Positions 27,068-63,096 of a stretch of DNA of 64,000 nt are shown here, piece by piece; within the stretch, counting starts at the first letter, position 1, and each line of letters begins with the position of its first letter. Location: NCBI RefSeq assembly GCF_037042905.1, contig NC_087250.1, forward strand, positions 12,960,001 to 13,024,000, in the 5' to 3' direction. This DNA comes from Lytechinus pictus. Taxonomy: Eukaryota. The notes beneath the pieces were generated by a model that was given only the letters and a program-made list of their open reading frames with translations, searched no databases and was not told where the DNA came from. The position numbers were made by a program, and so were the translations under genes.

Positions 27068-27194
27068 GGGTTAGTGGCTAGGGCGACCCCGATCCGATTA
27101 ACCGTCATATAGACAGATTTTCGACAACACCAATTATAATTTCCTTTGTCTATCTGACGGTCAATCGGATCGGGGTCGCCCTAGCCACTAACCT

Positions 27195-30021: not shown

Positions 30022-30034
30022 CCGGAAGCTGAAC

Positions 30035-33741: not shown

Positions 33742-35967
33742 CCCAGGGAACAATACAGCGTTGGACCAACGTTGGATCAACGTTGGGAATTTTTTTCCCA
33801 ACGTTGCCTCAACGTTGGCAGGCCAAGGTTGCATCATCGATAGAAGTGCACGCGCATACATCGTCAGACCAACAACATTTCCAACGTCAGTTCAACGTTG
33901 TCCACCATCAATGCTCCAACGTTGGTATAATGTCGGCTGAGTCATCAATAACAGCGTTGCTGCAACGTTGATGGGCAACGTTGAAGCAGCGATGGACGTG
34001 CATTTGCATACATCGTCAGTCCAACTATGTTAACAACGTTGGTTCAACGCTGTCCAGCAACAATGCTCCAACGTTGTCTGGCAACATTGCTCCAACATTG
34101 TTACAACGTTGTCACAACGTTGCTCCAACATTGCTCCAACGTTATTCTAACGTATGGCAGTAATTAACAAAACATTAATTGGTCTCAAGGTGAAGACCAC
34201 CATTACAACTCTACACTCTAATCTTTATCATCATGTCTTATCCTATCCTAAAATCCTACATCCTAATCCTATATCCTATTCCTATCATCCTACACATATC
34301 CACTGTATCCTGTCATTGACTCCTATATATAGAGCAACTTTGCTATACTTGGCAGAATACAGTTAATATCATTTTCCACACTTAACCTTGAATATTTAAC
34401 TTAGAATAATATGTTTTGATTATAAATGATATGGTAATGGAGCCACATACTTTTCTGAAACTTTTCATGGTGGAAATATTGAATAAACATAAATACTCTA
34501 ATTATTATAGCAATATTACCTAAAATTTTGGTCATTTACTGATGTAATGAATATTCATGAGTGCATAATCATTGTCCAGATGAGGCAGGTATGGCAGCGT
34601 TGGTCCAAAGTTGGTCCAACGTTGGGTGACGTTGATCCAACGTTGGTATAATGTTGGTCCAATGTTGATTGTTGATGGAAAGTTGATTCAACTTTAGTCC
34701 AATGTTAGTCCAACGTTGGCGTAAACGTTGATTCAATGTTTGTCTAATATCGGTTAAATGCTGTTGTAACGTTGATTCTTTGTTGGTCTGATTTTAAACA
34801 AATCCAACGATGCGCCATCTCCATCAAACAGTTTTCAACACTGTGCCATCATCATCTGTAACCTGTTCATGATTCTATCAAAAAACATTACAACTATTAT
34901 TACAGCTATTCATTTCTTTTCATTCTTTCTGTTACAAGTCTCTTCACATAATTAAGAGGAATCAAGAGAATTACGTGTGATATTTATTGAGGCCTTTGTA
35001 GCATTCAAACTTTTTTGACATCCTCTTTTTCTCAAACAAGACTAATACCAAAAAACATATGCATATGTAATAAGAATTAAGATGTATTACATTTTCTTGC
35101 GAGTTGCAATCTCTGTTTCTGTCTACAATTGTTTAATGACTCGGTATATGCAATGCCAATTGCAACGTCAGTAATCAGCACAAAAACTCACATGTGTAAT
35201 TGCAGTCTCTCAGTATTTACAAAATCTAAAAAGGAGGTCGCGTAACTTGGCCTCACTCAGAGTAACGTAGCTACTGCCTACTGTAACTAAAGAGTGCCTC
35301 TTTTTGATTAAGATAAAAGTCAACTGATATCTCAATATGCATGGCCATGGCATAGTCTCGCTCGTGCCATAACTATTAAATGATATTTCAGCGTCAAGTG
35401 TAGCATGCCTCACATAGCAACTACAGGTTTGACTGCAGTTGGAAAACACTCGGTCCAGGCTAGGCCAGGCAGGACCGACCAAGTCAATTCAAGGCAGCGT
35501 ATAATAAATAAGGCAGGGATGCCAGGTAGCAAGTCATTGGGTGATTTCAAGTACGATGTACGGTGTTGAGAGCGTGAAAGGGCTGCTGAACTGAGCTCCA
35601 ACACCAAGCGTAATATTATTTTTCATTGAAATGTATTAAAACTCTAATGATTTGCTCTCATCTTAAATGTAAAAGATAATTTTACGGAGATGGTTCGTCG
35701 TGTTCGCCCCCTGTTCGTGAGCTACAGTTCATCAACACCAACACTGAACTTTAAATCACGATTCTCCCAATCCATGGGGGCCGGTGTTGCTGAATGGGGA
35801 AATTGCTTGTAGATCATCAACACCATGCAGCCACAGTGCAGTGTTGGGTTCAGCAGATGACAATCAACACCAGCCTTCAACACAAACTGCCGGAAATACA
35901 CCATATTTTCCGAGGTCAATCTCAACACCAGCCTGAGTCAAGTACGGTGTTGTCACAACACCAACAC

Positions 35968-36587
35968 TAACCCAGGGAGCTCCGGCCCGCTCAGCGGGCC
36001 GGAGCCCAGGGGCTTACCGTGTAATTCACCATGGCCACGGTAGTAGCGTGAAGTATGGTCTAAATAATTATCCGAATAAATAGTTAAAACAGAAATTAAG
36101 CACTTACCATGATTATATGGATGAAGGTCTAACGAGTGGCAGCTTCCTGACATCGAGGCACAGACTGGAACCTCAAAAAACGAAAAGTTCTGTCGCGGTA
36201 GCTCTCCTTCTTTCAGAATTCATAGCAAAATGGCCGTTCGAGACCGGTACCGAGGGTGTAGAGCGCATGCGCGAATTTGACAAAGTCTATATGCGCTCGT
36301 GCTATTAGCCTCGGTCTCAATCGGCCATTTTGTTTTGAATTCTGAAAGAGGAGAGCTACCGCGACAGAACTTTTCGTTTTTTGAGGTTCCAGTCTGTGCC
36401 TCGATGTCAGGAAGCTGCCACTCGTTAGACCTTCATCCATATAATCGTGGTAAGTGCTTAACTTCTGTTTTAACTATTATTCGGATAATTGTTTAGACCA
36501 TACTTCACGCTACTACCGTGGGTATGGTGAATTACACGGTAAGCTCCTGCAAGGGCTCCGGCGGCCGGAGCTCCCTGGCCTGGGTTA
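35968..36587. mobile_element. 620-bp foldback element, Mutator-like (9-bp TSD)
   Basis: Near-perfect arms of about 280 bp, TAACCCAGG../..CCTGGGTTA; TSD CACCAACAC at 35959-35967 and 36588-36596. Confidence 0.88.
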
Positions 36588-39500
36588 CACCAACACCAGA
36601 TTTCAACACTGTACTTGAAAATCATCCAATGACTGTTGTCTTGCCCTTGGTATTGCATACTCGTTCCCACTCACACGTATTGCGAGGTTAGTATTAGTCA
36701 CTCACACAAGCTAATTACGAGGTTAGTTAGTATGTTATACTGTGCAGTGACTGGTGTTAAGTACTACTTTACTACTACTTCCCTTACAAAAAATTCCTGT
36801 AGTACTCTGTGATATGTACTGCAGGAAGTATCGCAGGAAAGTACTGCAGGAATTACGTGCACGTAATTTGGGACGGTACTACAGAAATGTACAACAGGAG
36901 TACAACAGGTCCGTGTCCTGTGATACTTCCTGTGGTAATAACCGCATAAGTATGGCAGGAAGTATGACAGGACACGATCACCACAACCGCTACAACCGCT
37001 ACAACCACGACCACACTACTATTAGTACTACAGGACAGTATCACAGGATAGTATCACAGGATAGTATCACATGATAGTATGACAGGACAGTATGACAGGA
37101 TAGTATGACAGGACAGTATGACAGGACAGTACTACAGGAATACCGCAGACCAGTATCACAGGGAAGTACTACAGAACAGTATCGCAGGACAGTACTACAG
37201 GAGTACCGCAGGCTTCTGGTACTGTGTCCTGTAGTACTGTCCTGTGATACTGGTCTGGTATTCCTGTAGTACTGTCCTGTGATACTGGTCTGGTATTCCT
37301 GTAGTACTGTCCTGTGATACTGGTCTGGTATTCCTGTAGTACTGTCCTGTGATACTGGTCTGGTATTCCTGTAGTACTGTCCTGTGATACTGGTCTGGTA
37401 TTCCTGTAGTACTGTCCTGTGATACTATCCTGTGGTGATAAATAGTATCACAGGACAGTATGACAGGACAGTACTTTAGGAATTCCGCAGACCAGTATCA
37501 CAGGAAAGTACTACAGAACAGTACTACAGGACAGTACTGCAGGAATACCAAGATACCTTACCGCAGGACAATTCCTGCAGTACTGTCCTGTGGTATTCCT
37601 GTGATACTGATCTTTGATATCTTCTGTGGCATTATTGGTCTCATCCTGCAGCCTTCTTGTGATACTTTACTGTGGTAATCCTGCAGGGGTATTCTTGTTG
37701 ATTTCCTGTGACAATCCTATGGTATTGTCCTGTAGTAGTCTGTGCGATTTTCTCACGACACCGTCCTGCACTGGTTTGTTAGGCGTAGTAGTTTGTAAGA
37801 ATTTCCTGTGATCCAGCACAACAACTTTGACATCTGGGCCCCGTTGCATAAAACTTTTGCCAGACTTATTTTTGCCATAGTTTTTCTATGGCAAAAACCT
37901 TAGTTTTTTGCCAGAGTTTCAAATTCGGTCAAAATTTCATGGCAAAAAAACTCTGGCAAACTTTTGCCAGAGTTTTTTAAGTTGCCAGAGTTTTTTAAGA
38001 CTGAATAAACTTGAACGAGGATGAACGCCGATATCAGCCGATATCGCGATCGGTATCTGCGGCTGCTGAAAAAATCATGGAGACTCCATAGAACGGTAAG
38101 CTTGATATTTTTTAAATGAAATGTGTTGATATTTGCTATTTTTATCATTATAAGTCGATTAATTAGTTGCAAAAATATCTGTGTATTGTTTTGAATCCGT
38201 GCTCGCACCGTGAAAGTGAGATTCACGATTTTTTTACACGTTTGAATCGTTCCATTTTTGTGTCGCAAGCGCCTGCGGGGTCTGCGTCTCGGCCATGTCT
38301 ATTGCCGCCGGAGCTTCGGCATGGTGATGTGACCGCGCTGGTCGCACTTGGTGCGCCAACAGCTGAAACCACCAACTGCATCGACACGTTTGGAAAGCTT
38401 ATTTATCGATTTATCGTATTTCTCTTGCTATGATCACACATTCTACATTATGATTAGTATCAGTAAATAAAATTTCATGTTGTTCAAATCAATTTTTCAT
38501 GTTAGAATTGAATTGAATGCAAAGCCAAAGTTGCAAACTTTGGACCACCGTCACTGTCGGTCGTTACCAAGTCAGACAAGTTGAATTGAAGTTGGTTAGA
38601 TTCTAGACCTACAACAACAGTTAGATCGAATTTTCAGATCTAACTTTAGGCATAGAATCAACATTCTTGATCTAAGTTAACTTTTTCTGAAGAAGTTGAG
38701 ACTTCAGTCAGTCAGTTTGAGGTCTCCACCGTGAGGCGTGAAGCCCCTGAGGCTGAGTGAGGTACATGTTCTATTATTAGTATTACGTAGGCCCTTAAAA
38801 AAGGTGCGTAGCTGTAGAGCTAGAGCTAGATTAATGGTTGGCGCATAGACTCTCTTGTACCAGGTGCAGATCTAGAGCCTGTGTCTTTACTTAGTACAGT
38901 ACTACAGGGCGCGATTGGCACTAGGGCCTACAGTGCAGTGCTGCGATCCAAAAATTTTGACAACTCTGAATGGTGGCTTTAATTTCTCCCTTAAAAATTT
39001 GAAATAAAATAGGGGGGGAGTCGTACCAATTGACCCCCTTTCCCTGGATCTGCTATAGGTGACCCCACATGAAATTGCGACATCATGATCATGAACAGTA
39101 CTTAGCGTAATGTGCCAAAAATTTTGAGGGGGCCTGACACTGACAATGGCGTAGGGGGCAAATCTTTTTAATAAAAACTGAGCAATCCAAAATTTTTACA
39201 TTTTTTTTAAATACAAAAAAAAAAAAAAAAACGAAATTTTTGTTATCCCCTTTATTTTGTTTTTGAAAATTTTAGAGGGTCCATAGTCTCTCCCCCCCCC
39301 AAAAAAAAAAAATGTACGCCAGTGAACGTGAATCTATACAGTGGCTAGAGATTAAAAATTGGTCTCAATTTAAAGCTTGTTATAATCCAACACTCTGTGC
39401 AATTTATTTCAATTAATTGAAATTAATGATCTGATGACCACTAAAGTAAAAATCTTGAAAATCCTTCATAAAAAAATTCTTGCAGAGAAACAAATCATAT

Positions 39501-41087
39501 ATATAATGTTATTTTGGGGCTGAATGGAGACTATGGGATTGTTGTATTGTTAGTATTTAACATGCATTACTATGTTTTTTAAGGGGCTAGAATTTTTATT
39601 TTGGTCTCAATTGCATATAACATCATTGATTATTTGTTTAAGATAAATAAAAAATGATTAAAAAATTGCAGTTTTGGAATTTGGATATTCTAAGTTCATA
39701 TAAATTTGCATATCTAAATTATGTTGAAGAAATGAACAAAATCCCTTTAGGTTATTTATCATCTGAAAGGGAATTTCAATGATCAATCCAAATATTTTTT
39801 TCCAGTTTGTACTGAGCTACTTTTTTTCTGTTAAGTTTGAATTACTGTAATAAGTTTAACAATTGGAATCAACCATCAAAATGACCTATCCTAGTAATGG
39901 TTTAATTCACCGGCACAAACATATTAGTATATTAGTAGGAACATATTAGTAGGAAGAAATTCCTTGAATGCTTTGAGCGCCTAGGCAGCCCAGCTAAAGC
40001 CGGGGTAATAATAATAGCAGGGCCCGCTGGGAGAACAGTTTTCGGAACTGAAGCGGCTTCCCTGGGTAAATATACCTGTATTATTATTATTATTATTATT
40101 CATTTGATAATTTATACTGAAAGTAATCTCAATGCAAATATTTGTGTGACTTTATCTAGTCTTAATTTGTGACTCTCTAATAGGATTATTTATTTTCTCA
40201 TTCAATATCTAACAGCTTAAATAGTTGAGGTATATACACTGGAGCAACTCAAGTGCATGTGTGACTTTTTGAGAAGAAACCACAAGGCTGTTGGTTAGCA
40301 ATCACCATGTAAAAGGGTAAGATATACAGCTTAATTTCAAATTAGCCAAAATTCTAATTGCTACCATTTTAAGTATTTATAGACAGGCTTATATTTTATG
40401 TTGGTAATCTCGATGCAAAGTTTCTCAAAGTGAAAAGAATATTTATGAAGAAGAAGTCATTACTGCCTGATAATGTCGAACATAAAGTAGTTATAAAATA
40501 CAATTTTTTAAAAAGGCTTCGTCTTCTTGAATAGAAAGAAAAAAATTGTTTCAGGCATATTTGAAATGAGTAAGAATCCTCATGTTGATTATTAAATTTA
40601 TACAACCCCCCCTCCCCCCCCAAAAAAAAAAATTAGAAAATGTACCTAATCTCACCTGGCTATGCTAGTGATTGTGTAGACCTGAATCAATAATAGTTAA
40701 GTTCATTTAATTACCTCTTGCAATTCTTTGAAAATTATTATTGATTTTGATTTTTTTTCTTTGATATGTCCATTGGAAATGATGAAATCTTATTTTCTTA
40801 CAATTACAAGTTTTGATTTAGATTTTCATGGAATAAAACTGAAAGAGTACAACACATCTTTCTTATAAATTCCTGATTTGAACTCTAGTTACATTAATAG
40901 ATTGCAATTTTAAATTTTGATAACTTACAAAGTAGATAAATAATATTAATTATATGCCATGAAATGAGATTTTTGTCAAATAAATTTAGACATTCTTGAC
41001 AAAGTGCAGAGTGTCTTTTCAATTAATATATAGCATATACCTATTTTATGATTTGTTTGTGTTTGCATTTTAAATAAAGGTTTGCAG

Positions 41088-43140
41088 AAACCAGACAGAG
41101 AGCCTGTATGGAGATGCTATTGGCTGCCCAGGTCGGACTGCCTCCAACCTGAGGCGGTCTTGGAGTGATCTAACAAAAGAGTGAATGATTATGCTAGGAA
41201 TCAGACAAAGACTGGTATGTATTTTTATTTATAAGAGTTAAGAATATATTTTATATGCATCAAGAAGAATTAAAGATCACTATCTCTTAAATTTTATTTT
41301 GTTGTAATTGTCATGCAACTAATCCAAAATATCTAGAATTTTTTTACATCCACCCATCGGAGGTGGGTCCGAGGACAGGTTTTGGGGTTGTCTGGCCATC
41401 CTGTCTTTCTTAAATTATTCTGATAAGTAAAGAACTGTTTGATTTCAAACTTTGTCCAAGAATGCATGTAGGATTGATTATACTTTAATTATTTTGAGGG
41501 TATCAAGGTCAAAGGTGGCATGCCTTGTTCACCTGAATATACATCGCTCCTGTGATAAATAAAGAACCCTTTGATGGTTCAACTTCATCTTGGCAAATAT
41601 ATATTTGGGAGTGACAATGATCAGGTTAGGTCAAATGTAAAAATTCACCAGAGATCGTTGGCAAATTTGTGTGTTTAATATTTTTATCTTTTGATGTTGC
41701 AATGGCGGATGCATAAATTTCGAAACTTACAAATGTACCCCCATGATCCTAAACGGGTTAAGGATGGATTGGTGTCACGGCTAAATACTAATTAAAAAAC
41801 AAGTATTATTCTTTGTCTATTTCAGTCATTCAGTAATTAAATTGTTGCATTTGTGGAAAACTTCATAACTGAACAGTTCTGTGTGTAGTGACTTCAAAAT
41901 TTGATATTGACAGATTCTTCTTTGGCCTAGATCCCCTGTGTTTGTGGGGGGGGGGGGGGGGGTAGGCACAGATCTGGGACAGATCTGGGGGGGGGGTACA
42001 CCCCCAAAAAAATTGTTGAAAGTACTGTGTATATATGCAAGTGATGACCAGTTTTTTTGGGGTTGTCAACATTTTCTGGACAAAAGTGCCCCTCCTTTTG
42101 GAAATTCCTGGATCTGCGCCTGGGGTGAGGCGAGTCAAAATCACCCTTCATAGTTTTTTTTTAAGATCCTTCTGCTGTGATCCCTGTTTGCATGGAGAAC
42201 ATTTATAATTGTGGCATTACTGCACTTTGTTAAATCTTTAGGTGGTAAAGTGAAGCCAAATATGGAGATTGTGCTGGCAACCATTAGGGACAAGGCCAAG
42301 CATTGGGTCCATGGCCAGGAGACAGAGACTGGGGCATCTGAGCAACTGGTTAGTTTTACATAAAAGATTTATCACACAAAGGCATAACAAAGTTGAAAAT
42401 ATATATACCTAAGGATCATTGTATTAATTTTGCTATATTCTTTCATTCATTTTCTCGAGAAATGAGCATAATTTCGATTGAAATTTGTACAAGATGGTTC
42501 TCCCTATAGAAATAGGTAAACTGGTTTACATTGTACAATGAAAAATTCAGATTTTTTAAAAGCTAGAATAATTATCCCTAACCCATAGAATTCCTATCAT
42601 TCATTTTGAATTAATTAAATCTGAATTTTAACGGCGATAGTTCTTCTTTCCTCATGAAAATTTCTGCAAGGAATAGTAAGTAGCTTCAACTACTATTGCC
42701 AGATTGAGGGATTTTCGTTCAGAGTTGGTAAATGATTTAAGATTTCCAAAATGAAATAAAAATGTTGAATCATAGTAAGTCAATAAAAAAAAATCAATGC
42801 GGAATGGTTTGAAGATGTAATTAAAGTTAAGTCAAACATTATTTTCTTGATGTGCAGCTTTCACATAAGGCAGCCTGCTTCTGGACATGGGGAAGCCAGA
42901 GGAGGAAAAGGAGGTTGAGGCGGAACCTCAAGCTGTTCCCGGGGCACCATTGACATCCAGGGTAGATGGGGTCTAGTTGATTTTTAGGACACCAAGATGA
43001 CACCCAGCATAAGAGAAGAGAAGGTGCTCTTCCTGTTATGACCAGCACACCAAGTACCAGGAGCATGGATCTGCAGCAAGTTCAGCAGGAGACGCTCAGA
43101 ATGCAGCAAGCTATGCTGCAAACATTTAAAATCATCCATG
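41088..43140 (+). pseudogene. Relic Myb/SANT-like DNA-binding partner gene of the Harbinger (exon relics at about 41088-41214, 42242-42348, 42858-43140)
   Basis: GRTASNLRRSWSDLTK/VNDYARNQTKT|GGKVKPNMEIVLATI..VHGQETETG (the splice yields KTGG), then an acidic segment and coiled-coil-like MDLQQVQQETLRMQQAMLQ; stops and frameshifts are present. Confidence 0.6.
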
Positions 43141-43619
43141 TTGATTTTTGTAATTATCCACAATTGTTTGCAGCAGTTTGTTAATGGAAATCAGTAGTAA
43201 CATTGAACAATGCAACTTCCTCTCCATTTTTTTAAAACTGGAAACCTGTTGAATATTGTTTTTAGAAAATGAAGTAAATCACCTTGAACTTTGGAAATTT
43301 CCAAAAGCATATATTTTAGCAAGTAATATGAAAATGAGTTATACCTTGGTCACATTTGGTGGCCTTACGGCAAGTCAAAATCAGTCGTTTTATGTATTAC
43401 TATACGAACCACCTACATGAAGCTGGTACAAGGATGAGTAAAATGGTTGATTTCGACTCGCCATAATGCCACCGGCGAATGTGACCTAGGCATAAGTTGT
43501 TGATGTCATTGCCTCATAATTTTGAACAAAAAGTGACAAAGACTACATTCTTCAGGATTGAGAAAGTTAAACTTGAACTTTATTCTCATCTCAGTAGATA
43601 GAAGATAATGTTATTCATT

Positions 43620-43815
43620 CAATACTGCGGTAGAATTTGAACAAATGCCTTGCAATGCAACATAAAAATTTAGGTTCTGAAATCTTGATGGGAATCCCTG
43701 TGCAAGAACAGTTTGAAAGTTTATTTATACATGTTCATATTGCAAGTCTGTTATATGATCTGTCAGCATTGTTTGTGGATCTCACACTGGTGTCATTAGC
43801 CATAGTTCCAATCTT
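43620..43815 (-). pseudogene. Relic Harbinger (HARBI1-like DDE) transposase, C-terminal part
   Basis: Minus strand, with frameshifts: WLMTPV*DPQT/NADRSYNR...SRFQNL, matching the WLMTP..YN..LKxRFxxL pattern of this family. Confidence 0.65.
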
Positions 43816-44026
43816 ACGCCATCTGCAAAACGTTTTCCAATGGTACTGTTATGTTGATTTAAAAGAAAAGGGACCTTGTCAACATTCAATCACATCTTTC
43901 AATACGCATATAAGGGTATGGGATACTGTTAGCATTGAAACTAAAATATGACTTGATAAAAATTATTTTCAATTAAATTAAAAGTATTATAATGGTTCAT
44001 AACAAGTTCTTTTGACTGTCACTCTG

Positions 44027-44560
44027 ACTGTTCTTAATAAGTGATTGCGAATAAAATTATTTGAAATGTATAATTCAATGAGAAATGAATTGTTTAAAAG
44101 AGGATAAATTGCGAGAGAAGAGATAGAAAAAGAAAGAAAGTATTAAGAAAGAGACATCTGAGTTGCGTGACTGTAATTTAATTGAAAAAAGAAAACTGTT
44201 CTTAATAAGTGATAAGTTTTTCCCTATTCTCGCTTGCAAATAAAATTGTTTTAAATGTATAATTCTATGAGAAATAAATTGTTTAAAAGAGGATAAATTG
44301 CGAGAGAAAAGATAGAAAAAAGAAAGTATTAAGAAAGAGACATCCGAGTTGTGTGACCGTAATTTAATTGAGAGAAGAAAACTGTTCTTAATAAGTGATA
44401 AGTGTTCCCCATTCTCAATTGCAAATTAAATTATTTTAAATATATAATTCAGAATTAAATTGTTTAAAAAGGAGAAAGGGAGAGAGAAGAGGAAGAAAAA
44501 GAAAGAAAGGAGAATTATTAAGAAAGAGATGTCTGATTTGTGTGACTGATATTTTAATTG
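44027..44560. repeat. Three diverged tandem units of about 170-185 bp
   Basis: ACTGTTCTTAATAAGTGAT starts at about 44027, 44195 and 44381. Confidence 0.8.
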
Positions 44561-46919
44561 ACAGTAGAAATAAAATGATTTAACCTTTAGGTTGGCGTCC
44601 GACTATAAAAATACAATTGCACCATCCCTCTTGGCCCATAAAGGAAAATATTCTTGATTGTAACATAAAATATTACCAAGAAAAACATCAAGTCTTGTTC
44701 GCCCCCCCCCCCCCCACCCATATAATTGCCACACCTTCAACACTATGGATCTATGTTTTATGAAATTGCTAATTTTGATATTTTGGAAATATTTTTAACA
44801 TTGCCAAGAAAGCAACAACAACAAAAAAAGAACCTTTTTGAAATATTATGGACAAATGTGATACAAAATGTTTTCCTCCACTTTTTCTAACAATATTATA
44901 ATGTTTTGAATAATGGCATTGAGAAGGGGGTGATGTGATTGAATTGCATGAATTTAATTATTTGTTCCTTGTCAAATAATTTGGATATACATACTTTCAT
45001 CCAATGTAAATACAATGTGTAGACCTAGGCTGTTTACCCCCCCCCCCCCTCTTCCAGAATAATCCCCCTCTTGCTATCTCTCTTTCTCTCTCTCTCTTAT
45101 TGTATGTTAGATGTTCGGGGACAGTTTCATCCCATATCATGGAGGTTATCATTAATTGAGTTTTATTCCTGGGTTTTATAAAGCAACCACAAAGAAAAAA
45201 TAAAACATCTCTCAGTTGTCCCCGTTCAGGAACTTTCGATGATGGCTAGTTTTTCTTACTTTATTACATTTTGTTCCCAGCCTTCTATCATATACATGTA
45301 CATGTAGACACAAGTGTGAAATTAAAAAGGAATCCACACAAATTTCGGGTCACTGTATTATATAGTGTAAGTTTTGATAAATATATCAGTCGGATATTTC
45401 ATTTCCCCTTTCATTTGTTTACGTGCTCGATCGTCGTCTGTCTTGGACTGGAGCAAGCCGAGCGACGGGAAAGAAAAATATAAGTTAGGTCTGTTTTGAG
45501 TGAAAGATAGACCTCCTCCGGCATGCCCCTCCTTCTCAATCATCACCCAGTTTTTATGACCTGTTAAAGAAAAATGAGACTGGCAAAGGTGAGAAATTAA
45601 GATGTCCAATGAGCGCGTCCTAATCTTACTTTGAAGTTCCAACTTATTTTTGCAAGTGTGGGACTAGGCCGTATCGACTGCTATTCAAGTTTTCCTCGTA
45701 AAATTGAACTTGCAGTACAAGTCTGTTCAATCGTTAAAATAAAGTTAGCTCATACTTCTGAGTATTTCAGTTGATTTAGGGTAGTATTTCTTGGTATGTC
45801 TCGTAGAACTTGTACATATTTGGATTTACAAAGATGGTTAAATGGTAAAAAACAGCAAAAATTGAGGCGGCTTAGGAGGTACTCCAACAACACATCGTTG
45901 CATATCGCATAGAGGTTGAACCAGCGGCCAACTCGCCAGCCGGAGGCTCTGGCGATAAAGGTCACGGTAGCAAAGAAAAAGAGCAGACTGCCTAAGTTCA
46001 AGTTCAACTTTAAAGCCTTATGTTTTGAGTAATTTAAAGTGTTTAGTCCAACTGCATCGCTCTATTCACAGCATAACTTTTCAAAAACACTATAATCATA
46101 TAGATTTACTTAAACTAGAACTAGATTCTATCTTAGAAGATTTTTATTATTGAGCTGTCACAGGGTTGATAAATTTAAAAAAATTAAACCACCAACTATT
46201 ATTCCCCCCACTTCACTTAAAATCTAGATCTTCCTAGGCCCTATTTTTACTAAATTATATGAAATTTTCTGTAATTACCTTATTGCGTAGCCTATACAAG
46301 GCTTATGTCACCCTTCTAATTATTCTTGAAGCCGTAGACAGGTGAATACTGTATATGGTACTTGGGACAGATCCTGAGCAGCTGCCTTGAAATAGTTTTG
46401 CCGGAGTTTTTAGGACTTTGCCGTTGGTACAGGAGCTACGGCAAAAAACCACTTGATTTGCCGGAGTTTTTAAAAAGTTTTGCCGTAAAAAACTCCGGCA
46501 AAGTTTTTTGCAATGGAAAACTCCGGCAATTTTTTTTTTGCCGTAGTTTCCTGATTTTTTGCCGTAAAAAACTCCGGCAAAAGTTTTATGCAACGGGGCC
46601 CTTGACTAATGAAAAGAGGCGTGAAAAAACCCACAAATTTGCAAAGACGTTAAAAGCATATTCACATACCTTTATTATGTATGAGCTGTACTATGCACAG
46701 TATAGAACATCTTTGATATCATAAATGACTGCTAGAATAATGCAGTAACATTTCATCTTTAGGATAAGACATGTACAAAGATTTATATCCATGAACATTG
46801 AGATGCCACATGAACTACTTTCACTATTCATACATTGCTGCCATTTTGAGATCACATAAAGAAAGCTAGATTCGACCCAGAATCCTTCCCTCTAACACAA
46901 CAATAAGCGATTATTATTA

Positions 46920-47093
46920 ATACCTTGGTCACATTCCTTGACCGGTTGCCTTACGGCGAGACAAAATCAGCAGTTTTAGGTATTCCTGTACAAACCACCC
47001 ACGTGTAGCTGGTAGTAGCTGGTACAAGGATGATTAAGACTGTTAATTTTGACTCGACGTAAGGCCACGAGCCGGCGAATGTAACCAAGGCTT
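46920..47093. mobile_element. Small PIF-type MITE; sister copy at about 43340-43493
   Basis: ATACCTTGGTCACATT..AATGT(A/G)ACC(A/T)AGGC at both loci, with shared internal sequence. Confidence 0.6.
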
Positions 47094-48495
47094 AACCAGT
47101 ATTATGGTTGCAAAAAAAACTGTAATAGCTGAGCAATTGCATTTTCCCCTTCTTGTCAACACCCGATTGGCTTAATACTAAAAGCAGAACATCCTTTACT
47201 CAACCATGTTATGAAACAATGGATAACCACTTCTGCATGTACAGATAATGCATGGTGCACATACAGTAAGGGATGAAATTATGATGTGTTGATCACCAGT
47301 ATAAACTTAAAGTACATGAACGTAATCATAATCACTTCATTTTGCTCAGAATTCACTTAAGTCCATAAATACTGAAAGATATTTTTGAATGAATTTCACA
47401 TGATTTAGAACGTTCACCATAGGTTAGAAAAAATATTTACATAAGATTACTTTGCCAAAACGTAGATCAAATCTATTGAGACATTAACCTTTTTGACATT
47501 GAATAGGCATATCATTTTACACAGTCTTCTTGTCTAAGAATTGCTCCAACTACGTATTGAAGGGTTATATATGAATGTAAGCATGAGCCCATCATAAACA
47601 CGAAATTGCGGCATGTAATTTGATTTGCTACATGTCATAATTGATAACTAAATGACGTTCAATACTTGATGTTGCTACATAAAATAATTAAGGTCATGTG
47701 GCAATGTGAATTCATACCTACTCGAGTCATTTAGTAATTTCAATTAGTATATGACCTAATTAATTATGACATATAGCTCAAAATTGACTTGAATAATTAT
47801 GACCAATTTGATTGACCTCAATTATTTGAAGTAGCAACATCAATTATTTAACATAAGCACTCTCAATCGAGGTGGAGTAACTCTTCTTTAGGTCATGTTA
47901 CTATTCGAATTGGAACATGTCATTGTTTAGGTCATGCAGCAATTCAAATTACTTGCTCAAGTAAACAATTACAATTGTAATATCACGCAAAATGAATTAG
48001 CTGTACATGACATAATTCTGTTCTTTGATGGGCTTATGCTTCCATATATTAAGTAAATGGCTTTAATTCTTAATGATTATCCAAAAATTCATATACATAA
48101 AATAAACCAATATGAAGAGCATCATATCCAAAGTGATCACCAGTTCACCCAATGTTACAGTACAAAAATAAAAAGCTGATTTTCTTATGTACTTTCACAC
48201 ATGTTATACATGTGCACTGTATGTCACTTGACCCTGGCAGACAATAGAATTGACAAGCAGTGAGTCCTACATGTACATGTAGCTGCCTGGTTTGCATACT
48301 TTAATGTTATATGAATTTCAATCATGGCCATGTGCTGTTTATACACTAACTGGAGGGATCTTGTCATAATGTTATGTCAATTAAAAACTGAATAAAATCC
48401 CAATTATCCTGAATAGCTAGACTAGCCCCCTTGCAATGGACATTGTAATCTTGTTTTCTTTTACCTTTCATTATTTTTGAAAATTTTCATACAAC

Positions 48496-51218
48496 TAGGG
48501 CTGGGACTAAAACCCGGGTACCCGAGTAGAAAAATCAATACCCGATACCCGAAAATTGCTCACCAGTATAATGTACATGTATTTGATTTGTATTGCATAG
48601 TGTAAGACATGATTGTAACTCATTACAAAAGTACACAAGCCTCATTTTGAATTTCACCAATTACCCTCTAAATATCCATAAATATACAAGTTTTCAAGTG
48701 ATGATGATGTGACCGAGATCGTTCAATCATCGCCATGTTTCTTTTGCAGCGCAGTGACGTCATCCAGCCACTGCGACGCAAACCAATTTATGAATGAAAA
48801 TATAGTAAGCATTAAGCCTGAGTCATATCGATTATTTTGAAAACCGGTGTTCGACAGCTTTAATTCGATCGAACATCGATGCATCGAAATTTGAAGGCGG
48901 GGAAAATCGAGTCTTTTTTTGGCTCCGGCCGGCCGTCGATGCATGCGCTATGCATGCACTACATGCACTAACGGTCTGCGCTGGCCGGGTGAGCGTTGCA
49001 AAAGCAAATGACAGAGCAAAGTTCGTTTGTATTTTCCATGATCACAAAACACAAAAAAGGCCGGGGAGCAATGCAGAATTCTTCCCAAAATATCTTCAAC
49101 CATGATATCTGCAGATGATAAGATATAAGTTTAAAATGAAACAATATTAAAGACATGAATCACGCAGAGTCGATCCGAATGATTTTCGGTCAACTAGCAT
49201 TCGCAGTCCAGACTCGCACACACCAGCCCCGTACACTCACTCTCCCGAAACGACAGGCGTGCTTGCCAGCGCCATCTAACAAGTGCAAACAGCGGGGAGA
49301 GCGTTGTAACTTGCCTGAGATTGTGTAGTTGGCGGGGTAGTTAGATCCAAAATTAGCTCCAAATAAATTGATGGGAATAAATACGTAATTTTCTCTGGAT
49401 GGTCATTTGAATTGGTATTCAATGCTGATATAACGATTGTGAGGAAAGATTGTGGAATATGAGTTCTGGCGATGTTCGAGATTTAATCCTGATAATGATA
49501 ATCCATTTTTTTTAGACACAAGAGCTTTGTGATCGAAATAAATACGAATTCTTGGATCGAGCTCTAAATTAATATAAATTATTATTGGATGTTAAATAAT
49601 TACGATTTAATAAGATTTTATGGCCATACTAAAAGTATTGACGATGTCAGCAAAGTATGTTATGTTCATATGGAAGAATTAATAGTATTATACTGGCATT
49701 ATTTTTATTTTTTATTCCATCTCTGGACGTCTCCGAGCTCCGGCTCCGAGAAAAGAAGCACAATGCGCATGCGCGTTCGATGACGTCTGACATATTTTCC
49801 ATTCATGAAATCAGAGCCCAAAGTTGGGCACAAACAAGCTTCATATTGATGGGAAAAAAATCAAACGTAATTTTTCTCTGTTTTGTCATGTAAAATATTA
49901 TTATATGGTGATATTATGATCTTCAAGAGAGTTTCTACATGTTGACAATGTTCGATAATCAATCCTAACGTGATAATTATTTTCTTAGACAAGTGCACTC
50001 ACTCAAGTCGATCGTCATGTGATGTCCGCCATTGAAAATTTAAACGAAATACAAACGTTTCACATCAAGCTCTAAGTTCATATTAATGATTATCATATGC
50101 AAATTATTGTTAAATATTACGATTAAATCATGTTCTATGGTCATGATATTAATATTGTTCATGAAAAGCAAGATATACTTTACGTTGATCGCATCAATTT
50201 TCCGGCCATTTTCTGATTTGATTGACAGTACGGTACTGCGCATGCACGATGAATGGCGACTTCCATTCATAAAGTCATCGTGCATAAATTATCTCGGCAC
50301 AAGCAGACGAGCCGGGCAGACGAGTAAGACTAGAACTATGATCAAAATAAACTTCAAATTAATGGTGAATAGGCATCATAATTACACAATCGGTTTCATT
50401 TTGGGGGCAATATAAATGAAGTAAGTAGTAGTCAAGTTGGATATTACTGTTTATTTTGATGTCTGATTGTGTGAACCAAATGAATCGGCCAGCCGACGTA
50501 TTTTTTTTTTTTTTTCGATGCACCGATTTTGCAAAATCTGCACCGGCGTTCGATGACATCGATCGAACATCGATTTTAAAATCGATTCGACTCAGGCTTA
50601 GTAAGCATGCGCATTGCAAGCCTCAGCCCCACGCAGTATTACGTCAAAACAAGTCTGCAATACTCTGTCACCTCATACCAAAATCGACCTACGAAGCACC
50701 AGCCAATCACGTTCTTGTTACCATTTTTAGTTCATCATAAACCGAAAATGGGAACACGATCGTGATTGGCTGGCGCATTTGACGCTCCGAAACCCGGAAA
50801 TCAATTGACTTTGTTCACGTAGCGATACAAACTCACGAACACGATGTAATATCGATGCTACTTCGTAAGATTTTGACGGAAAAGCAAGAATAAAAATTTG
50901 CTTACCTGTGCAGTATCGGTGAGAAAACCTTTTATAATTCATATGATATATAGGAAAGTGGAATTCTAGGTCGATTTTGGTACGAGGTGACAGAGTATTG
51001 AAACTTGTTTCGATGGAATACTGCGTGGGGCACGGGAGGCTTGCAATGCGCATGCTTACTATATTTTCATTCATAAATTGGCTTGCATCGCATTGGCTTG
51101 ATGACGTCACCTATGGGGTGTTTCCACCAGTCATATTTCAAGTGACATGATTTTCAGGTACCCACCCGAAAATTACCACGGGTACCCGAAGAGAAAAAAC
51201 CCGAAAGTCCCAGGCCTA
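48496..51218. mobile_element. hAT-type non-autonomous element (8-bp TSD CATACAAC)
   Basis: TIRs TAGGGCTGGGACT / AGTCCCAGGCCTA; ACCCG subterminal repeats; TSD at 48488-48495 and 51219-51226. Confidence 0.88.
48813..50600. mobile_element. hAT-type element (8-bp TSD GTAAGCAT) inserted in the left arm of a foldback (48754-51110)
   Basis: TIRs TAAGCCTGAGTC / GACTCAGGCTTA; ATCGAT repeats; TSD at 48805-48812 and 50601-50608. Confidence 0.88.
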
Positions 51219-52673
51219 CATACAACTCTTTGTTTTTTTTTATACTTTATCAAAGCTTTTATGATTATAAATGTAATTAAATAATTTGACTTGATAAATG
51301 TATATTACTGGTATACTAATTGTGAATTTTTAGCAAGAAACAGTATTTGTGTTGGATTAATACATAAAAATGTTGCGAAATTTCGGAACAGCGTACCCAG
51401 GCATCACAAATTTGGTCTCAAAAGATGTGCAAGACTTGAAAGTAAAAAGGCAGCTAACAGCCTCCCAGTTATTAACCCTTAGTTAAATTGGACCAATTTG
51501 ACCCCCCCCTTCCAAAAATTTTGCGACCATGCTGTCGCACAATTTTTTTAAAACATGCCTCTTTCTAGTCTTGTGCATCTTTTGAGACCAATCTTGTGTC
51601 ACCCGGTACGTGGTTCTGTAATAACGTGACATTATGTAAGTACATGTCATACCAAAAATTGCTCAAAAACGTGATTTTGTGTACAAGGTCAATGCAATAG
51701 AGGAAAAAGTATGATTTTGTATTCTAATTACGCATAAATTAGTATTATCACTTACTAACAATTTGCGTGAAATAATTTACAATTTAATTTGGTAAATTAT
51801 GCCCTAGACAACCCATGTGCCAATGTTAGACGCGATTGTGCGGTCAAGATCTCAAGGAAGGGGGGGGGGGCCCTGGAAACCCCCCCTCCCCCCTTCCCCG
51901 GCCATATCAACTCCCAAAATACCCTGGCTTTAGTTGACTTTCTGGCTCCTCTTGAGTAGTCACCATTCATTGGACAGCTTGTTTTTATCCAAGTCTGTAT
52001 AGCACGAGGCAGCTTAATCTGTAGAAAAAAAAACACATACCATTACGATAACATGAACAACATAAAAATACAAGAAATAAGGTGTTTTGCCCCCATCTAG
52101 ATCTCTTTCACAAGTACATATCTATCGGATAATGAGGTCCTTGCGGCTATCTCTCTTAGCATATTCTTGCTTATAAAAGCAAACTAAGCCGAAGAGTGAC
52201 AAACAATTTATAATGCAAACAAATTGTCATAAGCACATATTGAAACTCTTTAATAAAACAATGAAGAATAAATCTACATCTTCTAACAAGGATTACACTG
52301 TATGCCACTGCATGAATACAATCTGCTTAATTTTGTAATTATAATATCTACTGAAGTGAATGCCTATATAATCACCTTTTATGAACTCCAACCGTGTCTT
52401 GTACAAGAACATGGCCTTTTCTGTGTACACCTGTAGTATCTTTCCCACATAATGCTGGACTTGCTGCTCGATCATCCAGAGATCCCTCTTTGGATCTTTA
52501 ATGAAATGAAATGAATTTGAGTGACATAGTAAAATTTTATTTGCAGGTTAATACAAATACATGATGTAATAAAAATACATGATAAAACTTCTTCATTTCC
52601 ATATTTCAGTGTTACAATTCAGGTGCAAAGAGTCATATTCTTTAATAATATTCAACATAAAATCAATGAAAAC

Positions 52674-53641
52674 TAGTGCTGTTGTTGATAGGCCTCATAT
52701 CGACATTGATGTCGACATACGAAGGATTTTCAAAATTCCGACATGTCGACATGCACGCACCCACATCGACATGTAAACATAAAATAAAAAGGGGTCTAGC
52801 CTACAATCACGAGTGTAAAGATTAGCTGAAAAGTTAGAAGCATTTATCCACAGTAATTGGCGCGATTAAAAGGTTTATTCAGCTTAGCAGCGCATTAAAT
52901 GAAAAAAAGAATATCTGCGAGCTGTGCGGCAGTAGAAATACGTCAGTGCAGGGCCGGCCTGCCCGATCGAGCCGCCCTCGATATCCCGTTATAGCGAGAG
53001 TAGCATTCACCGTACCCATCGCGCGCTATTCACCGTGCTTGATAATACGTTGCTCCTCAATGCATTACTTTTCACATAAACGTGAGCAGCAGCGAACACG
53101 TGTTTTTGTCAAAGTTGTGACTGCCGCAATTGAGCGCTTACTTCATATCACGAAGTCACAGAAAACTTCCCTTCATTCGTTTGGAGATCGTTGCACGGAT
53201 CGCCGCGGAAGTGATACTGAAATTATCGGTCGATTTTCATTACTTTTCATTGTCAAATTGAGGAGCTTGCGTTTGCAGCAATGATCACTGTTGTAATTGG
53301 TGATTCTCAAATTGGCTACGAGTGTTATTGAGCAATGCTTTCGAAACCGGATCCTGGTACAAAAACTTGATTCTCCAGAAAAAAAATGTGGATTAAATCA
53401 GTGATTTTGGAAGCTCAATTCCCGAACTGAGCCTGTATTATATAGATCTAGTGTGGGGATATCACTCGTGTCAAGGTGAATATATTTGATTGAGAGTGTT
53501 GTTCCACGATCGAATGCGTTTTTTTTATGTTAGGGAGCCCAGGCTAAATTACGGTCCCTTTTTCATGTCGACATTGTCGATGTCGGGATTAATTTTTAAG
53601 CGACATGTCGACATGGATTTTTGTTCCCGACAACAGCACTA
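52674..53641. mobile_element. hAT-type element (8-bp TSD ATGAAAAC)
   Basis: TIRs TAGTGCTGTTGT / ACAACAGCACTA; ATGTCGACAT subterminal repeats; TSD at 52666-52673 and 53642-53649. Confidence 0.88.
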
Positions 53642-54112: not shown

Positions 54113-54643
54113 CTTTGAGACCGTGAACTGGATCTGCCGATCTGATATTCCGAGTGACAAAAAGTGGGATCTTATGGGGGGGGGGATATCAAATTCATGC
54201 AACATCACGCTCTTTAAAAAAATTAAAACTAATATTCTTCCTGCACACAAAGTTTCAGTTCTTCTCCATGCCTCTATCCGTCTCAAAATTGATGATTTAG
54301 AGCCAACATGAAGTTTCTCACACGTATCAATATTCAATACATCGCATGCGTGTGAGGTCGGTCGGGTCAGACCAGGCCCGGTATCTCGCGAATATTGCAT
54401 CCGCATGCAATGTTTTGAAATCGGCAGCGAATTATAAATATGTGTGAGGAACTTTATGTTGGCTCTAAATCACCAATTTTGAGACTGATAAAAGCATGGA
54501 ACTAAATGAAACTTTGTGTAAAGTAAGAATATTAGTTTTAATTCTTTTTAAAAATCAAGATGTTGCATGAATTTTATATTCCCCACCCCCATAAAATCCC
54601 ACCTCTGTCACTCAGAATATCAGATCGAGTTCATGGTCTCGAA
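54113..54643. mobile_element. Diverged foldback element (arms of about 210 bp)
   Basis: 54113-54323 is the imperfect reverse complement of 54441-54643 (e.g. GATTTAGAGCCAACAT / ATGTTGGCTCTAAATC); no TSD was identified. Confidence 0.7.
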
Positions 54644-58518: not shown

Positions 58519-60320
58519 CCCAGGACCAAAATCCAGTTAAAACCAATTAGGGCAAAACCAATTGAAACCAGTTGGCCAACTGGTTTCAATAGGGAAATTG
58601 GAACAACTGGTTCCAATTGGTTCCAGTTAAAAACCAATTGAAAACCAGTTGCCAATTGGTTCCAGTTAAAACCAATTGGGCAACTGGAACCAGTTGGCAA
58701 TTGTTGTCAATTGGTTCCAGTTGTTCCAATTTCCCTATTAAAACCAATTGAATCCAAGTGGAGGCAACTGGTTTCAATTGGTTCCAGTTGAAACCAATTG
58801 GAGGCAACTGGTTTCAACTGGAACCAGTTGAAACCAATTGGTTTCCAACTGGATCCAATTGGAACTTCCAGTTGGAACGAACTTAATTAGTTACAAATTA
58901 ATTAGCATTTGCAGTAACTATTTCTCATGCCAACACAGAAGCAGTGTTATATGTCTATTAATACCAAAGTAAAGGGCATTGATAAAATACAGACTTTCAT
59001 GTATATATATTTATATGGAAGATCTTCAAATATATGTACTTTTATTTGATGTAATTTGGTAACAGTTAGTGGTGTACTAATTATCCTTTAATCTGTTTTA
59101 ATTATAATCTATAACATTTATGAACATGGTTTTCACTGCTAAGTATTCTAAATACTAATCTTTAAAAAGTGTGGTACTTGAAATTGTAAAGAATTAAATA
59201 GATACATTGTTAATGATGATTAATCTCATAAAACATTAATCTGTGCACACTGGCAAATAATATGCAAATTAACTGGTTTCAATTGGATCCAGTTGGGTAA
59301 CTGGAAAATTTCCAATTGGAAACCAATTGGAAATAATTTCCAGTTACCCAACTGGTTCCAATTAGAATTCATTTCCAGTTACCCATCTTTCCAGTTAGAA
59401 GTCATCTCAGTTACCCAATTGGTACCAGTTAGGATTTCCAGTTACACAACTGAATGGTTCAAGTTAGGATTTCCAGTTACCCAACTGGTTCCAGTTAGAA
59501 ATCATTTCCAGTTGGAAGTCATTTCCAGTTACCCAACTGGTTCCAGTTAGGATTTCCAGTTGCCCAACTGGTTCCAGTTAGAAATCATTTCCAATTGGAA
59601 GTCATTTCCAGTTACCCAACTGGTTCCAGTTAGGATTTCCAGTTGCCCAACTGGTTCCAGTTGGGATTTCCAGTTACTCAACTGGTTCCAGTAAGAAATC
59701 ATTTCCAATTGGAAGTCATTTCCAGTTACCCAACTGGTTCCAGTTAGGATTTCCAGTTGCCCAACTGGTTCCAGTTGGGATTTCCAGTTACTCAACTGGT
59801 TCCAGTTAGAAATCATTTCCAGTTGGAAGTCATTTCCAGGTACCCAACTGGTTCCAGTTAGGATTTCCAGTTGCCCAACTGGTTCCAGTTAGAAATCATT
59901 TCCAATTGGAAGTCATTTCCAGTTACCCAACTGGTTCCAGTTAGGATTTCCAGTTGCCCAACTGGTTCCAGTTGGGATTTCCAGTTACTCAACTGGTTCC
60001 AGTAAGAAATCATTTCCAATTGGAAGTCATTTCCAGTTACCCAACTGGTTCCAGTTAGGATTTCCAGTTGCCCAACTGGTTCCAGTTGGGATTTCCAGTT
60101 ACTCAACTGGTTCCAGTTAGAAATCATTCCCAATTGGAAGTCATTTCCAGTTACCCAACTGGTTCCAGTTAGGATTTCCAGTTGCCCAACTGGTTTCAAT
60201 TGGTTTCAACTGGAAATTGTTAAATTCCAGTTAAAACCAATTGAAACCAGTTGAAACCAATTGAAACCAATTGAAACCAGTTGGAAATCCAACTGGTTTC
60301 AATTGGATTTTGGTCCTGGG
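58519..60320. mobile_element. 1.8-kb CCC-terminal DNA element (2-bp TSD CT) inserted in the subterminal repeats of the 24.1-kb element
   Basis: TIRs CCCAGGACCAAAATCCA / TGGATTTTGGTCCTGGG, with CT on both sides (excision restores the AGAACTATCACAGAG repeat); CAATTG/CAACTG/CAGTTG arrays. Confidence 0.92.
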
Positions 60321-63096
60321 CTATCACAGAGTGATACCACAGGAGTCCTGTAGTAATTCCTTATACAGTTTTGTACAACAGAAGTATCACACAGGTACGA
60401 CAGAGTACCATTAAGGTATTGCATGAAATTTTCATATTTTTATGTACCACAGAAGTATGACAGAACTATCACAGAGTGATACCACAGAAGTCCTGTTGTA
60501 ATTCTATATACAGTTTTGTACAACAGCAGTATCACACAGGTACGACAGAGTACCATTAAGGTATTGCATGAAATTTTCATATTTTCCTGTACCACAGAAG
60601 TATGACAGAACTATCACAGAGTGATACCACAGAAGTCCTGTTGTAATTCTATATACAGTTTTGTACAACAGAAGTATCACACAGGTACGACAGAGTACCA
60701 TTAAGGTATTGCAGGAAATTTTCATATTTTCCTGTACCACAGAAGTATGACAGAACTATCACAGAGTGATACCACAGAAGTCCTGTGGTAATTCTGAGGT
60801 ACCGTCGTGTATGACAGAAGTATCACACAGGTACAACAGAGTACCACTAAAGTACTGCAGGAATTTTTTGTAAGGGTTACATCAATATACTAGCGTCGGA
60901 CTGTACGCGCACAGAAGCTGACTCCGGGATCTTTCGGAGGGGATCAATAGTTGCAGTTACCGATTATCTGCAAGTGCTCAGAAAATTCCACTGTAGATTG
61001 TAGGTCCTAAATATGCAGCTTATAAGTACTGTGCCAGATCACTAGATATTCTGAAATTTAATTGTCTATATCCACTATCCAGTCCAAATTCTGCCAGATT
61101 CTTCAAAAATTGAAGGAAGCAGACTACACAGACATGACAGAAGGAGTCCGACGTCGCGACTAATTCTGCGCATCAGAATAGTATGGTATTCTTAAATAGG
61201 CACATTTGATGCTTGCATGTATTTCCTTCTTCAATTTCTTCTAGTTATGTGACGGTAGGCCTATGACATATCTCGTACTTACTGTGAAAGGCCTAGCCAG
61301 CTGCAAAGGACGAGGGCGTTTCTGGAAATTCTGGTCTTAAACTACATTTTTTTCTTGTTTTTCTCCTTTATTTTCTATATTATCGACACATTTGCATCCC
61401 CCGGTGCATGCAGCCTCTCTATATTCTACCCCATCTTTATTTTTGTTTTCCCCTTATAGACTTAGTTTTAGTTCCTCTTTCCCTTCCCATTATTTTCCTT
61501 CTCTCTCGATTTCTTTTCCCCTTATTGCTGGGGGATACCAAGGGTGACATGGATAGACAAGCAAACTTACTTGATCGACCCCCCCCCCCTTGGCCCCATT
61601 GGAAATTATGCGAGTAGTCTTGTCTTGTCTTGTCTTGGGTTAAGTCGGCATATGCAGACTTGCTTTACTCCGCCAACTTTATCAATTATCAATTCTCCAA
61701 TGAACCAGTTTCTAACGTTCTCAACACATTATGCCGGGATATTATGTTGACTGTCAAACAAATATCCAACAAACTATAGTTTCCAACATTGTGTCAATGT
61801 TAAATGTCAACAACTCTCCAATAAACTATTCCAATTACGCTGTCCACGTTGTGCCATTGTCCGTTGTTCAACAACTCTCCATCAAACTAGTTTCCAACTT
61901 TGTCAACGTTGTGCCATTGTCGACTGTCCAACAAATCTCCAAGAAAATAGTTTCCAACGTTGTTCCTTTGTCGGTTGTTCAGCAACTCTCCATCGAACTA
62001 GTTTCCAACGTAGTCAACGCTGTGCCTTTGTTGGCTGTTCAACACCTATCCAATCAAACACGCGTTTCCAACGTTGTGACGTTGTTGGCTGTCCAACAAA
62101 TCTCCAACACACTAGTTTCCAATGTTGTGCCATTGTCTGTTGTTCAACAACTTTCCAACGTTGCCAACGTTGTGTCATCGTCGACTATCCTACTGATCTC
62201 CAATCTACCAGTTTCCAACGTTGTGCCAGTGTCAGTTGTTCAACAACCTCCCATCTAACTAGTTTCCAGCTTTATCAACGTTGTGTCATTGTATACTATC
62301 TAACTAATCTCCAATCTACCAGTTTCCAACGTTGTGCCATCGTCGACTATCCAACAAATCTCCATCGAACTAGTTTCTAGCTTTGACAACGTTGTGCCAT
62401 AGTTGGTTGTTCAACAACTTTCCATCGAACTATAGTTTCCAACGTTGCCAACCCTGTGTCATCGTCGACTATCCAACTAATCTCCAACCTACTAGTTTCC
62501 ATCGTTGTGCCATTGTCGACTGTCCAACAACTCTCCAACTAACAAGTTTCCAACGTTGCCAACGTCGTGTCATTGTTGATTGTTCAACAACTTTCCAGCG
62601 AACTAGTTTCCAACGTTGCCAACGTGTGCCTTTGCTGGCTGTCAACAACTATCCAATCAAACGTGTCTCCAACGTTGTGACATTGTCGACTGTCCAACAA
62701 CTCTCCAACTTACTAGTCTCCAACGTTGTGCCATTGTCGACCGTCCAACAAATCTCCAACAAACTAGTTTCCAACTTTGTCAACGTTGTGCCATTGTCGG
62801 TTGTTCAACAACTTTCCAGCGAACTAGTTTCCAACGTTGCCAACGTTGTGCCTTTGCTGGCTGTTCAACAACTATCCAATCAAACGTGTTTCCAACGTTG
62901 TGACATTGTCGACTGTCCAACAACTCTCCAACTAACAAGTTTCCAACGTTGCCAACTTCGTGTCATTGTTGATTGTCCATCATCTTTCCATCAAACTAGT
63001 TTCCAACGTCGATTCAACGTTAATCCATCAAGTTTTTCCAACGTCCAACGACTTTCAAGTTTCCAACGTGGAGCCAACGTTGGCTTGTTACCTGGG

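Follow-up and report, generated by a model that had tools for sequence, protein, structure and literature searches.

A nested stack of transposable elements lies within one codon of a young Gypsy retroelement in the sea urchin Lytechinus pictus

We analyzed a 64-kb stretch of Lytechinus pictus DNA (NC_087250.1, positions 12,960,001 to 13,024,000; here called the window, with positions counted from its first letter), in which a 29-kb stack of familiar kinds of transposable element lies inside a single codon of a young Gypsy retroelement. The nesting is real. The Gypsy copy sits behind a truncated fragment of a ZIP gene; an element with CCC ends (A) sits in its RNase H region; a second CCC-ended element (B) sits in A; a third (C) sits in the end array of B; and the other inserts bounded by target-site duplications (TSDs) are located in A or B. 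GC content in the window, which is animal DNA, is 30 to 45%, and our evidence comes from this window, from protein relatives, and from simulation.

RESULTS AND DISCUSSION

A single insertion site within RNase H

An earlier note on this DNA had proposed that a 29.4-kb insert interrupts RNase H within a single codon, and protein alignments bear this out. The left Gypsy flank stops at position 39 of PF17917 (position 64 of PF17919), while the third residue of the right flank aligns at position 43 (position 68 of PF17919), leaving one position between the flanks. We mapped each flank separately onto 120 natural relatives, 35 of which fell below the identity thresholds; exactly one residue separates the flanks in all 85 relatives in which both could be placed. 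The TT duplication of A falls within the split codon, and positions 33742 to 63096 occupy one insertion site. Any insertion that is clean and duplicates 2 bp would show such single-codon precision, which confirms the borders and does not indicate codon targeting. The description of the insert as one 29.4-kb transposon goes beyond the single insertion site shown here; that the whole stack transposed in one piece is possible but doubtful.

Three CCC-ended elements, each with its own end motif

Element A (33742 to 63096; 29,355 bp) has CCC ends, terminal inverted repeats (TIRs) that match at 11 of 12 positions (CCCAGG[G/T]AACAA), and a TT duplication on both sides. It contains B and seven further inserts. 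Subterminal arrays of the motif CCAAC[GA]TT occupy its left end (33742 to 34850; 10 plus and 9 minus copies) and its right end (61681 to 63096; 17 plus and 1 minus), at 17 and 13 copies per kb versus 0 to 0.2 per kb in the 11 other segments. Element B (36781 to 60876; 24,096 bp) also has CCC ends, with TIRs matching at 25 of 26 positions, a TT duplication, and a CAGGA/CAGAA-type motif at both ends (12 to 29 per kb, versus 0 to 0.2 elsewhere). Element C (58519 to 60320; 1802 bp) has CCC ends, TIRs matching at 25 of 27 positions, and a CT duplication; it consists almost entirely of CCA[AG]TT[GA] repeats (70 per kb, versus at most 0.9 per kb elsewhere). C is inserted in the right subterminal array of B, which continues in phase across it, and CCC elements may favor each other's subterminal arrays as targets. 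The end sequences of these families are CCCAGGKAACAA, CCCTTACAAAAA, and CCCAGGACCAAA. The three TIRs differ from one another, each accompanies a motif limited to its own ends, and each occurs in the window only at its two ends when up to one mismatch is allowed. The coordinates and anatomy first proposed hold, and subtraction of the inserts leaves cores of 4628 bp (A) and 9818 bp (B), matching the earlier estimates of about 4.6 and 9.8 kb.

TIRs and TSDs of this length carry little weight for A by themselves, because they are near chance: in 100 third-order Markov simulations of the window, CCC..GGG pairs that combined a 2-bp TSD with an 11/12 TIR averaged 0.81 per simulated window, and three or more occurred in 5 of the 100. 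The real window has three CCC..GGG pairs with a 2-bp TSD among its 17 CCC pairs. The case for A is carried by the RNase H register, together with the motif arrays restricted to its ends. The same evidence bears on whether the stack is an assembly artefact, or a set of unrelated ends brought together by rearrangement. Part of positions 33742 to 43700 occurs in 16 sequencing runs; in 14 of these the shares were 0.47 to 0.53 (four runs of one study), 0.32 (one run), and 0.07 to 0.12 (nine runs), figures from which we draw no conclusion. The junctions are known from assembled sequence, and the combination of a 2-bp TSD and a 12-bp TIR arises nearly as often by chance, as such an explanation would have it; but the brackets are ordered and properly closed at every level, the one-residue register is uniform, the B array runs on across C, and there are no spare TIR copies, so that we consider an artefact very improbable. 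Nor do the TIR pairs appear to belong to independent short elements, since each is confined to its two ends and the RNase H register is exact; we rejected two independent short A copies because no additional TIR was found at up to one mismatch. An identity of A, B, and C with piggyBac, which duplicates TTAA, was rejected because their duplications are 2 bp.

Further inserts and coding content of the nest

The side insertions listed in the earlier note (a Harbinger, a Mutator-like foldback, another hAT, and a third CCC element) were all found. The foldback (35968 to 36587; 620 bp) is flanked by the 9-bp TSD CACCAACAC, a length from which we take it to be Mutator-like. The Harbinger-like element (37837 to 46600; 8.8 kb) has TIRs matching at 32 of 35 positions and flanks, CTG and CTT, that match at only two of three. 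Three elements are labeled hAT-like, all with short TIRs and 8-bp TSDs, although P-type elements likewise produce duplications of 8 bp: one at 48496 to 51218 (TIR 11/12, TAGG...; TSD CATACAAC), one inside it at 48813 to 50600 (TIR 12/12; TSD GTAAGCAT), and one at 52674 to 53641 (TIR 12/12; TSD ATGAAAAC). Between the first two lies a foldback (48754 to 51110) whose arms differ at 10 of 149 positions and at whose borders no TSD was found. The claim of up to seven layers, most with matched TIRs and TSDs, therefore stands for A, B, and two hAT-like elements (four of seven) but not for the foldback, nor for the outer transfer RNA (tRNA) palindrome and Gypsy copy, whose right-hand borders lie beyond the window. 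Two events in the Gypsy copy are absent from the earlier inventory: its gag-pol region carries an insert of 509 bp, and its 3′ long terminal repeat (LTR) is broken at TTAA.

No transposase family was recognized in A or B among 150 of the 154 stop-to-stop frames of at least 55 amino acids inside A, in agreement with the earlier note; this covers Transposase_21-type enzymes in A and B and hAT transposases in the hAT-like elements. The four frames left out were two in the Gypsy flanks and two in repeat arrays, and a scan that read through stops covered selected short stretches only. In the Harbinger-like element we discerned by eye what we take to be remnants of a Myb/SANT-like peptide (plus strand) and a DDE-like peptide (minus strand), on the basis of characteristic motifs that database searches did not confirm: these remnants gave no Pfam match, no homologue, and no Atlas match. 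A borderline phmmer match (P0129; E 1e-3) was to a Skp1_POZ-like repeat protein and was rejected.

Two further features touch these elements. A small palindromic family has two copies, 74% identical, in the Harbinger-like element (43341 to 43495) and in the B core (46920 to 47095). Within positions 37837 to 52673, the observed/expected CpG ratio is about 0.5 in the Harbinger-like element and parts of the B core versus 1.3 in two hAT-like inserts, a contrast that may reflect different residence times in methylated DNA.

The host Gypsy element

The Gypsy 5′ LTR (27259 to 28757, plus strand; TGTCACA...TGTGACA) is followed by a tract at about 28762 to 28777 that resembles a primer-binding site, presumably like tRNA-Pro. 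The coding region (28936 to 33741, plus strand) has Pfam matches, in order, to gag (SCAN, zf-CCHC), protease (a weak match), integrase, reverse transcriptase, and the first part of RNase H; the rest of RNase H lies at 63097 to 63359 (plus strand), where a stop interrupts it near 63142 and the frame shifts near 63256. Other frameshifts lie near 31750 and 33400, and the 509-bp insert (30035 to 30543) is flanked by two copies of AGCTGAAC. After a purine tract come the first 279 bp of the 3′ LTR (63410 to 63688, plus strand), whose match stops at TTAA; within 63685 to 64000 the LTR thus gives way to unrelated sequence, and this break is perhaps another insertion at a TTAA target, with its far end beyond the window. 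The LTRs are identical at 276 of 279 positions (1.1% divergence; 95% confidence interval, 0.2 to 3.1%): the copy is young, yet broken in several places.

Because integrase lies upstream of reverse transcriptase and RNase H, the element appears to be Gmr1-type by gene order; this order is a hallmark of the Gmr1 clade of Ty3/Gypsy elements (PMC8220671). The Gypsy protein has relatives in L. pictus (98% identity) and Lytechinus variegatus (97%); with the ZIP exon described below, these point to a Lytechinus-like sea urchin as the source of the DNA. Unlike that clade's described members, the present copy is broken at several points, and the likeness is one of gene order and not of a tree.

How the stack was assembled

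With only 1.1% divergence between the LTRs, the inserts either landed within a short time or came preassembled. The earlier note had offered two roles for the large elements, as vehicles of large cargo or as sinks for insertions. We weighed four explanations, by judgement and not by computation. Tentatively, the likeliest is that nonautonomous cut-and-paste elements nested step by step at a site that tolerates insertions, and that B was already partly loaded on arrival. A would have landed first, as a unit of roughly 5 kb; B would have come next, as a 10- to 24-kb unit with old repeat remnants and probably some TSD-bounded passengers; and the remaining inserts would have landed in place. We favor this reading because the flank register is exact, there are three TIRs and motifs, no transposase was seen in the frames scanned, the site keeps taking insertions (the visible 6.6 kb of Gypsy has been hit two or three times after its own arrival), a model of growth in place rarely reaches the observed depth, and En/Spm-type elements as long as 16 to 20 kb have been described (PMC6431247).

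That model (six settings, 15,000 runs each) takes its rate from the visible Gypsy DNA (6.6 kb), which has received one to three insertions; the count varies with the inclusion of A itself and of the TTAA break. It produced eight inserts at depth 4 in 0.4 to 10% of runs and, with the foldback left out, seven inserts at depth 3 in 1 to 19%. The simulation leans against a pure sink, in which all TSD-bounded elements would have landed after Gypsy as naked cores at a neutral site, each insert enlarging the target. A pure sink accords with the high local insertion rate, with nearly all TSDs being intact, with the 1 to 19% of runs that reach the pattern without the foldback, and with maize Ds elements that are reported to have grown to 24 kb through later insertions (PMC3260210). 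But it requires seven or eight events, two of them of 9 to 10 kb, within about 1% LTR divergence, and the naked B core is itself a 9.8-kb patchwork; we regard it as improbable.

The B core holds repeat remnants that are decayed or lack TSDs, and their arm mismatches are 6, 14, 23, and 26%, compared with 1.1% between the LTRs. Lacking intact TSDs and with arms diverged by 14 to 26% in three of the four, these remnants suggest that B moved with old passengers. A stronger version of carriage is that the A-B composite, about 29 kb with most passengers, was built elsewhere and pasted into Gypsy whole by a transposase of the A family acting in trans. Consistent with this, eight inserts at four levels lie in a host with 3 mismatches across 279 LTR positions, a pattern that growth in place seldom reproduced; the arms of the inner foldback are more diverged than the LTR pair (10/149 versus 3/279; Fisher P = 0.002); and a maize Ac/Ds macrotransposon has been reported to have moved up to 100 kb of nested retrotransposons (PMC3260210). 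However, comparing arms is not a sound way to date insertions, and for the Mutator-like arms the difference from the LTR pair is not significant (P = 0.13). In addition, 41 of 42 TSD bases match (although TSDs were partly identified by matching), so that the inserts could be as young as Gypsy, and transposition efficiency reportedly drops above about 6 kb of cargo (PMC6431247). The age inversion of a decayed Harbinger inside a young Gypsy was rejected as proof of carriage: because its TIRs have kept far better than the sequence between them, it may be a nonautonomous copy that moved late. A gene-less, CCC-ended, En/Spm-like element may have moved about 29 kb of stacked passengers (second and third CCC families, Harbinger-like, three hAT-like, and Mutator-like elements) in a single recent jump, a possibility that we take seriously while doubting it.

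Several points weigh against the stepwise, partly loaded nest that we prefer. No datum orders the arrival of A and B relative to the jump into Gypsy, and no cognate transposase is tied to the ends of A, B, or C. Metagenome scans with end patterns revealed no second copy of A or B, which also tells against a jump of the whole composite: the A-end pattern had no match, and the one match to the B-end pattern (L001) spanned only 19 to 21 bases, had no array, and was judged to be chance. The simulated rate rests on one to three events at a locus picked for being extreme; the fourth measured B-core remnant has only 6% arm mismatch; and arm divergence offers hints but no clock, since a DNA transposon carries its TIR arms to a new site without resetting them.

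Likeness to En/Spm and other known systems

The earlier note called the large elements nonautonomous and EnSpm-like. Their 2-bp TSDs, short TIRs, long subterminal arrays in two orientations, and lack of a recognized transposase fit that label; their CCC ends, in place of CAC or CACTA, and the missing link to a cognate transposase do not. For these two reasons we say that A, B, and C work like En/Spm elements rather than that they are such elements. Animal EnSpm families can end in CCC, although a literature search did not confirm this. In a search of the open literature, which does not include Repbase Reports or subscription journals, we found no paper on CCC-ended elements with 2-bp TSDs in sea urchins.

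Published descriptions give mostly CA..TG termini and TSDs of 2 to 5 bp for the wider EnSpm/CACTA group (PMC12730594), a 2-bp TSD for ENS1_Cis and related CMC-NA MITEs, or miniature inverted-repeat transposable elements (PMC6004678), and subterminal (subTIR) arrays for plant CACTA elements (PMC8978399). By comparison, A, B, and C start with CCC and end with GGG, outside the CACTA/CAC termini described there (PMC12730594, PMC6004678). Their duplications (TT, TT, and CT) fall within the 2 to 3 bp of the CMC group, which means little by itself. Their family-specific motifs, at 12 to 70 per kb at the ends and at most 0.9 elsewhere, form arrays of the kind reported for plants (PMC8978399). Nonautonomous En/Spm (CMC) elements therefore share with A, B, and C short TIRs, a variable 2-bp TSD, direct and inverted subterminal arrays of short motifs, and the absence of a transposase, whereas CCC...GGG replaces CAC...GTG and the arrays reach 1 to 1.4 kb.

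By analogy with En/Spm biology, A, B, and C would be three separate families mobilized in trans, each requiring a helper for its own motif. The helper protein would bind the family's own subterminal array, the CCC ends would be cleaved by a transposase, and staggered cutting of the target, by 2 nucleotides, would yield the 2-bp duplication.

Large composites have precedents. Maize Ds elements and Ac/Ds macrotransposons, as reported, include TIR- and TSD-bounded nonautonomous elements that exceed 20 kb through other transposons, as here, and both later insertion and movement as a whole unit are documented for them (PMC3260210). The present passengers differ in being several kinds of DNA transposon instead of LTR elements, and they sit in the retrotransposon of an animal. 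En/Spm families of 16 to 20 kb on record in Chondrus crispus indicate that this superfamily can move long units, which is relevant to the sizes of A and B; as described, those families are swollen by extra open reading frames, whereas A and B have no recognizable gene (PMC6431247). NuwaI elements (PIF-Harbinger, PHIS) are marked by a 3-bp CWG TSD and by open reading frames for a DDE transposase and a Myb/SANT protein. The Harbinger-like element shares with NuwaI TIRs shorter than 60 bp that start with G, a CWG-like left flank, and what appear by eye to be convergent Myb-like and DDE-like remnants (PMC4482050); it differs in its CTT right flank, in TIRs that start with GGC instead of GGG, and in coding remnants without a database match.

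The ZIP fragment and the surrounding flank

Upstream of Gypsy, tblastn identified two ZIP4/ZIP12-like exons on the plus strand (25774 to 25944 and 26247 to 26417; 88 and 96% identity), which cover just residues 345 to 458 of a 720-residue relative (P0001); a GT donor directly follows position 26417, and a ZIP4-like protein of L. pictus matches one exon at 98% identity. Nothing convincing in the window matched residues 1 to 340 or 460 to 560 of P0001, and no further ZIP exon was found in 3409 to 25773 or in 26418 to 64000. The exons thus appear to be a 5′-truncated duplicate, probably nonfunctional; this would account for the tolerance, at such a site, of a nest that measures 37 kb or more. The proposal of a putative ZIP intron as the outermost layer survives only in that ZIP exons precede the nest; they form an apparently truncated fragment with no next exon in the window. 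The 3′ exons of a ZIP gene copy (P0001 residues 562 to 720; 89 to 100%) lie farther upstream, at 294 to 3408.

Between the ZIP fragment and Gypsy is a tRNA-derived inverted pair (26996 to 27258; arms 27004 to 27115 and 27147 to 27258, with 6 of 112 positions mismatched) that matches tRNA in both ARAGORN and Rfam. Gypsy cuts its right arm, and any mobility of its own is putative. A 164-bp MITE with CWG-like flanks has two copies, 95% identical (13040 to 13203 and 26669 to 26832), the latter adjoining a short palindromic element (26449 to 26667).

Directly upstream of the truncated ZIP exons (22254 to 25027) are signal-peptide, WSC (Pfam positions 1 to 51 and 50 to 82), and Ser/Thr exons. The end of the Ser/Thr exon is in phase 1 and the start of the ZIP exon apparently in phase 0, so that the WSC exons are probably a separate small gene beside a duplication junction rather than part of a WSC-ZIP fusion. 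One WSC exon is split by a 486-bp foldback of 16-bp tandem units (24035 to 24520) between two copies of AATGCTAC. Elsewhere in the flank, exons at 12076 to 15860 read like a pancreatic-lipase-family gene (with a GHSLG motif seen by eye only), and a 15-bp unit forms inverted arrays, separated by about 3 kb (7492 to 10507), that presumably resemble the TU foldback elements of Strongylocentrotus. Three more elements are bounded by TIRs: 1612 to 5835 (arms 49 bp, 92%), 8351 to 9733 (31 bp, 97%), and 16718 to 18632 (56 bp, 84%).

Implications

Deep nesting and large nonautonomous elements are already known, and this locus is a good example of an ordinary phenomenon. For teaching, it offers a clean example of deep nesting that brings its own ruler, in that the split RNase H sets the borders and the age is bounded by the LTR pair, and three CCC-ended families can now be described by their end sequences and subterminal motifs. 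Should the composite have moved as a whole, a gene-less animal element would have made a natural cut-and-paste jump of 29 kb, longer than the 16- to 20-kb En/Spm examples reported (PMC6431247). If that single 29-kb jump took place, such elements would serve in nature as shuttles for large cargo, spreading other transposon families through sea urchin genomes.

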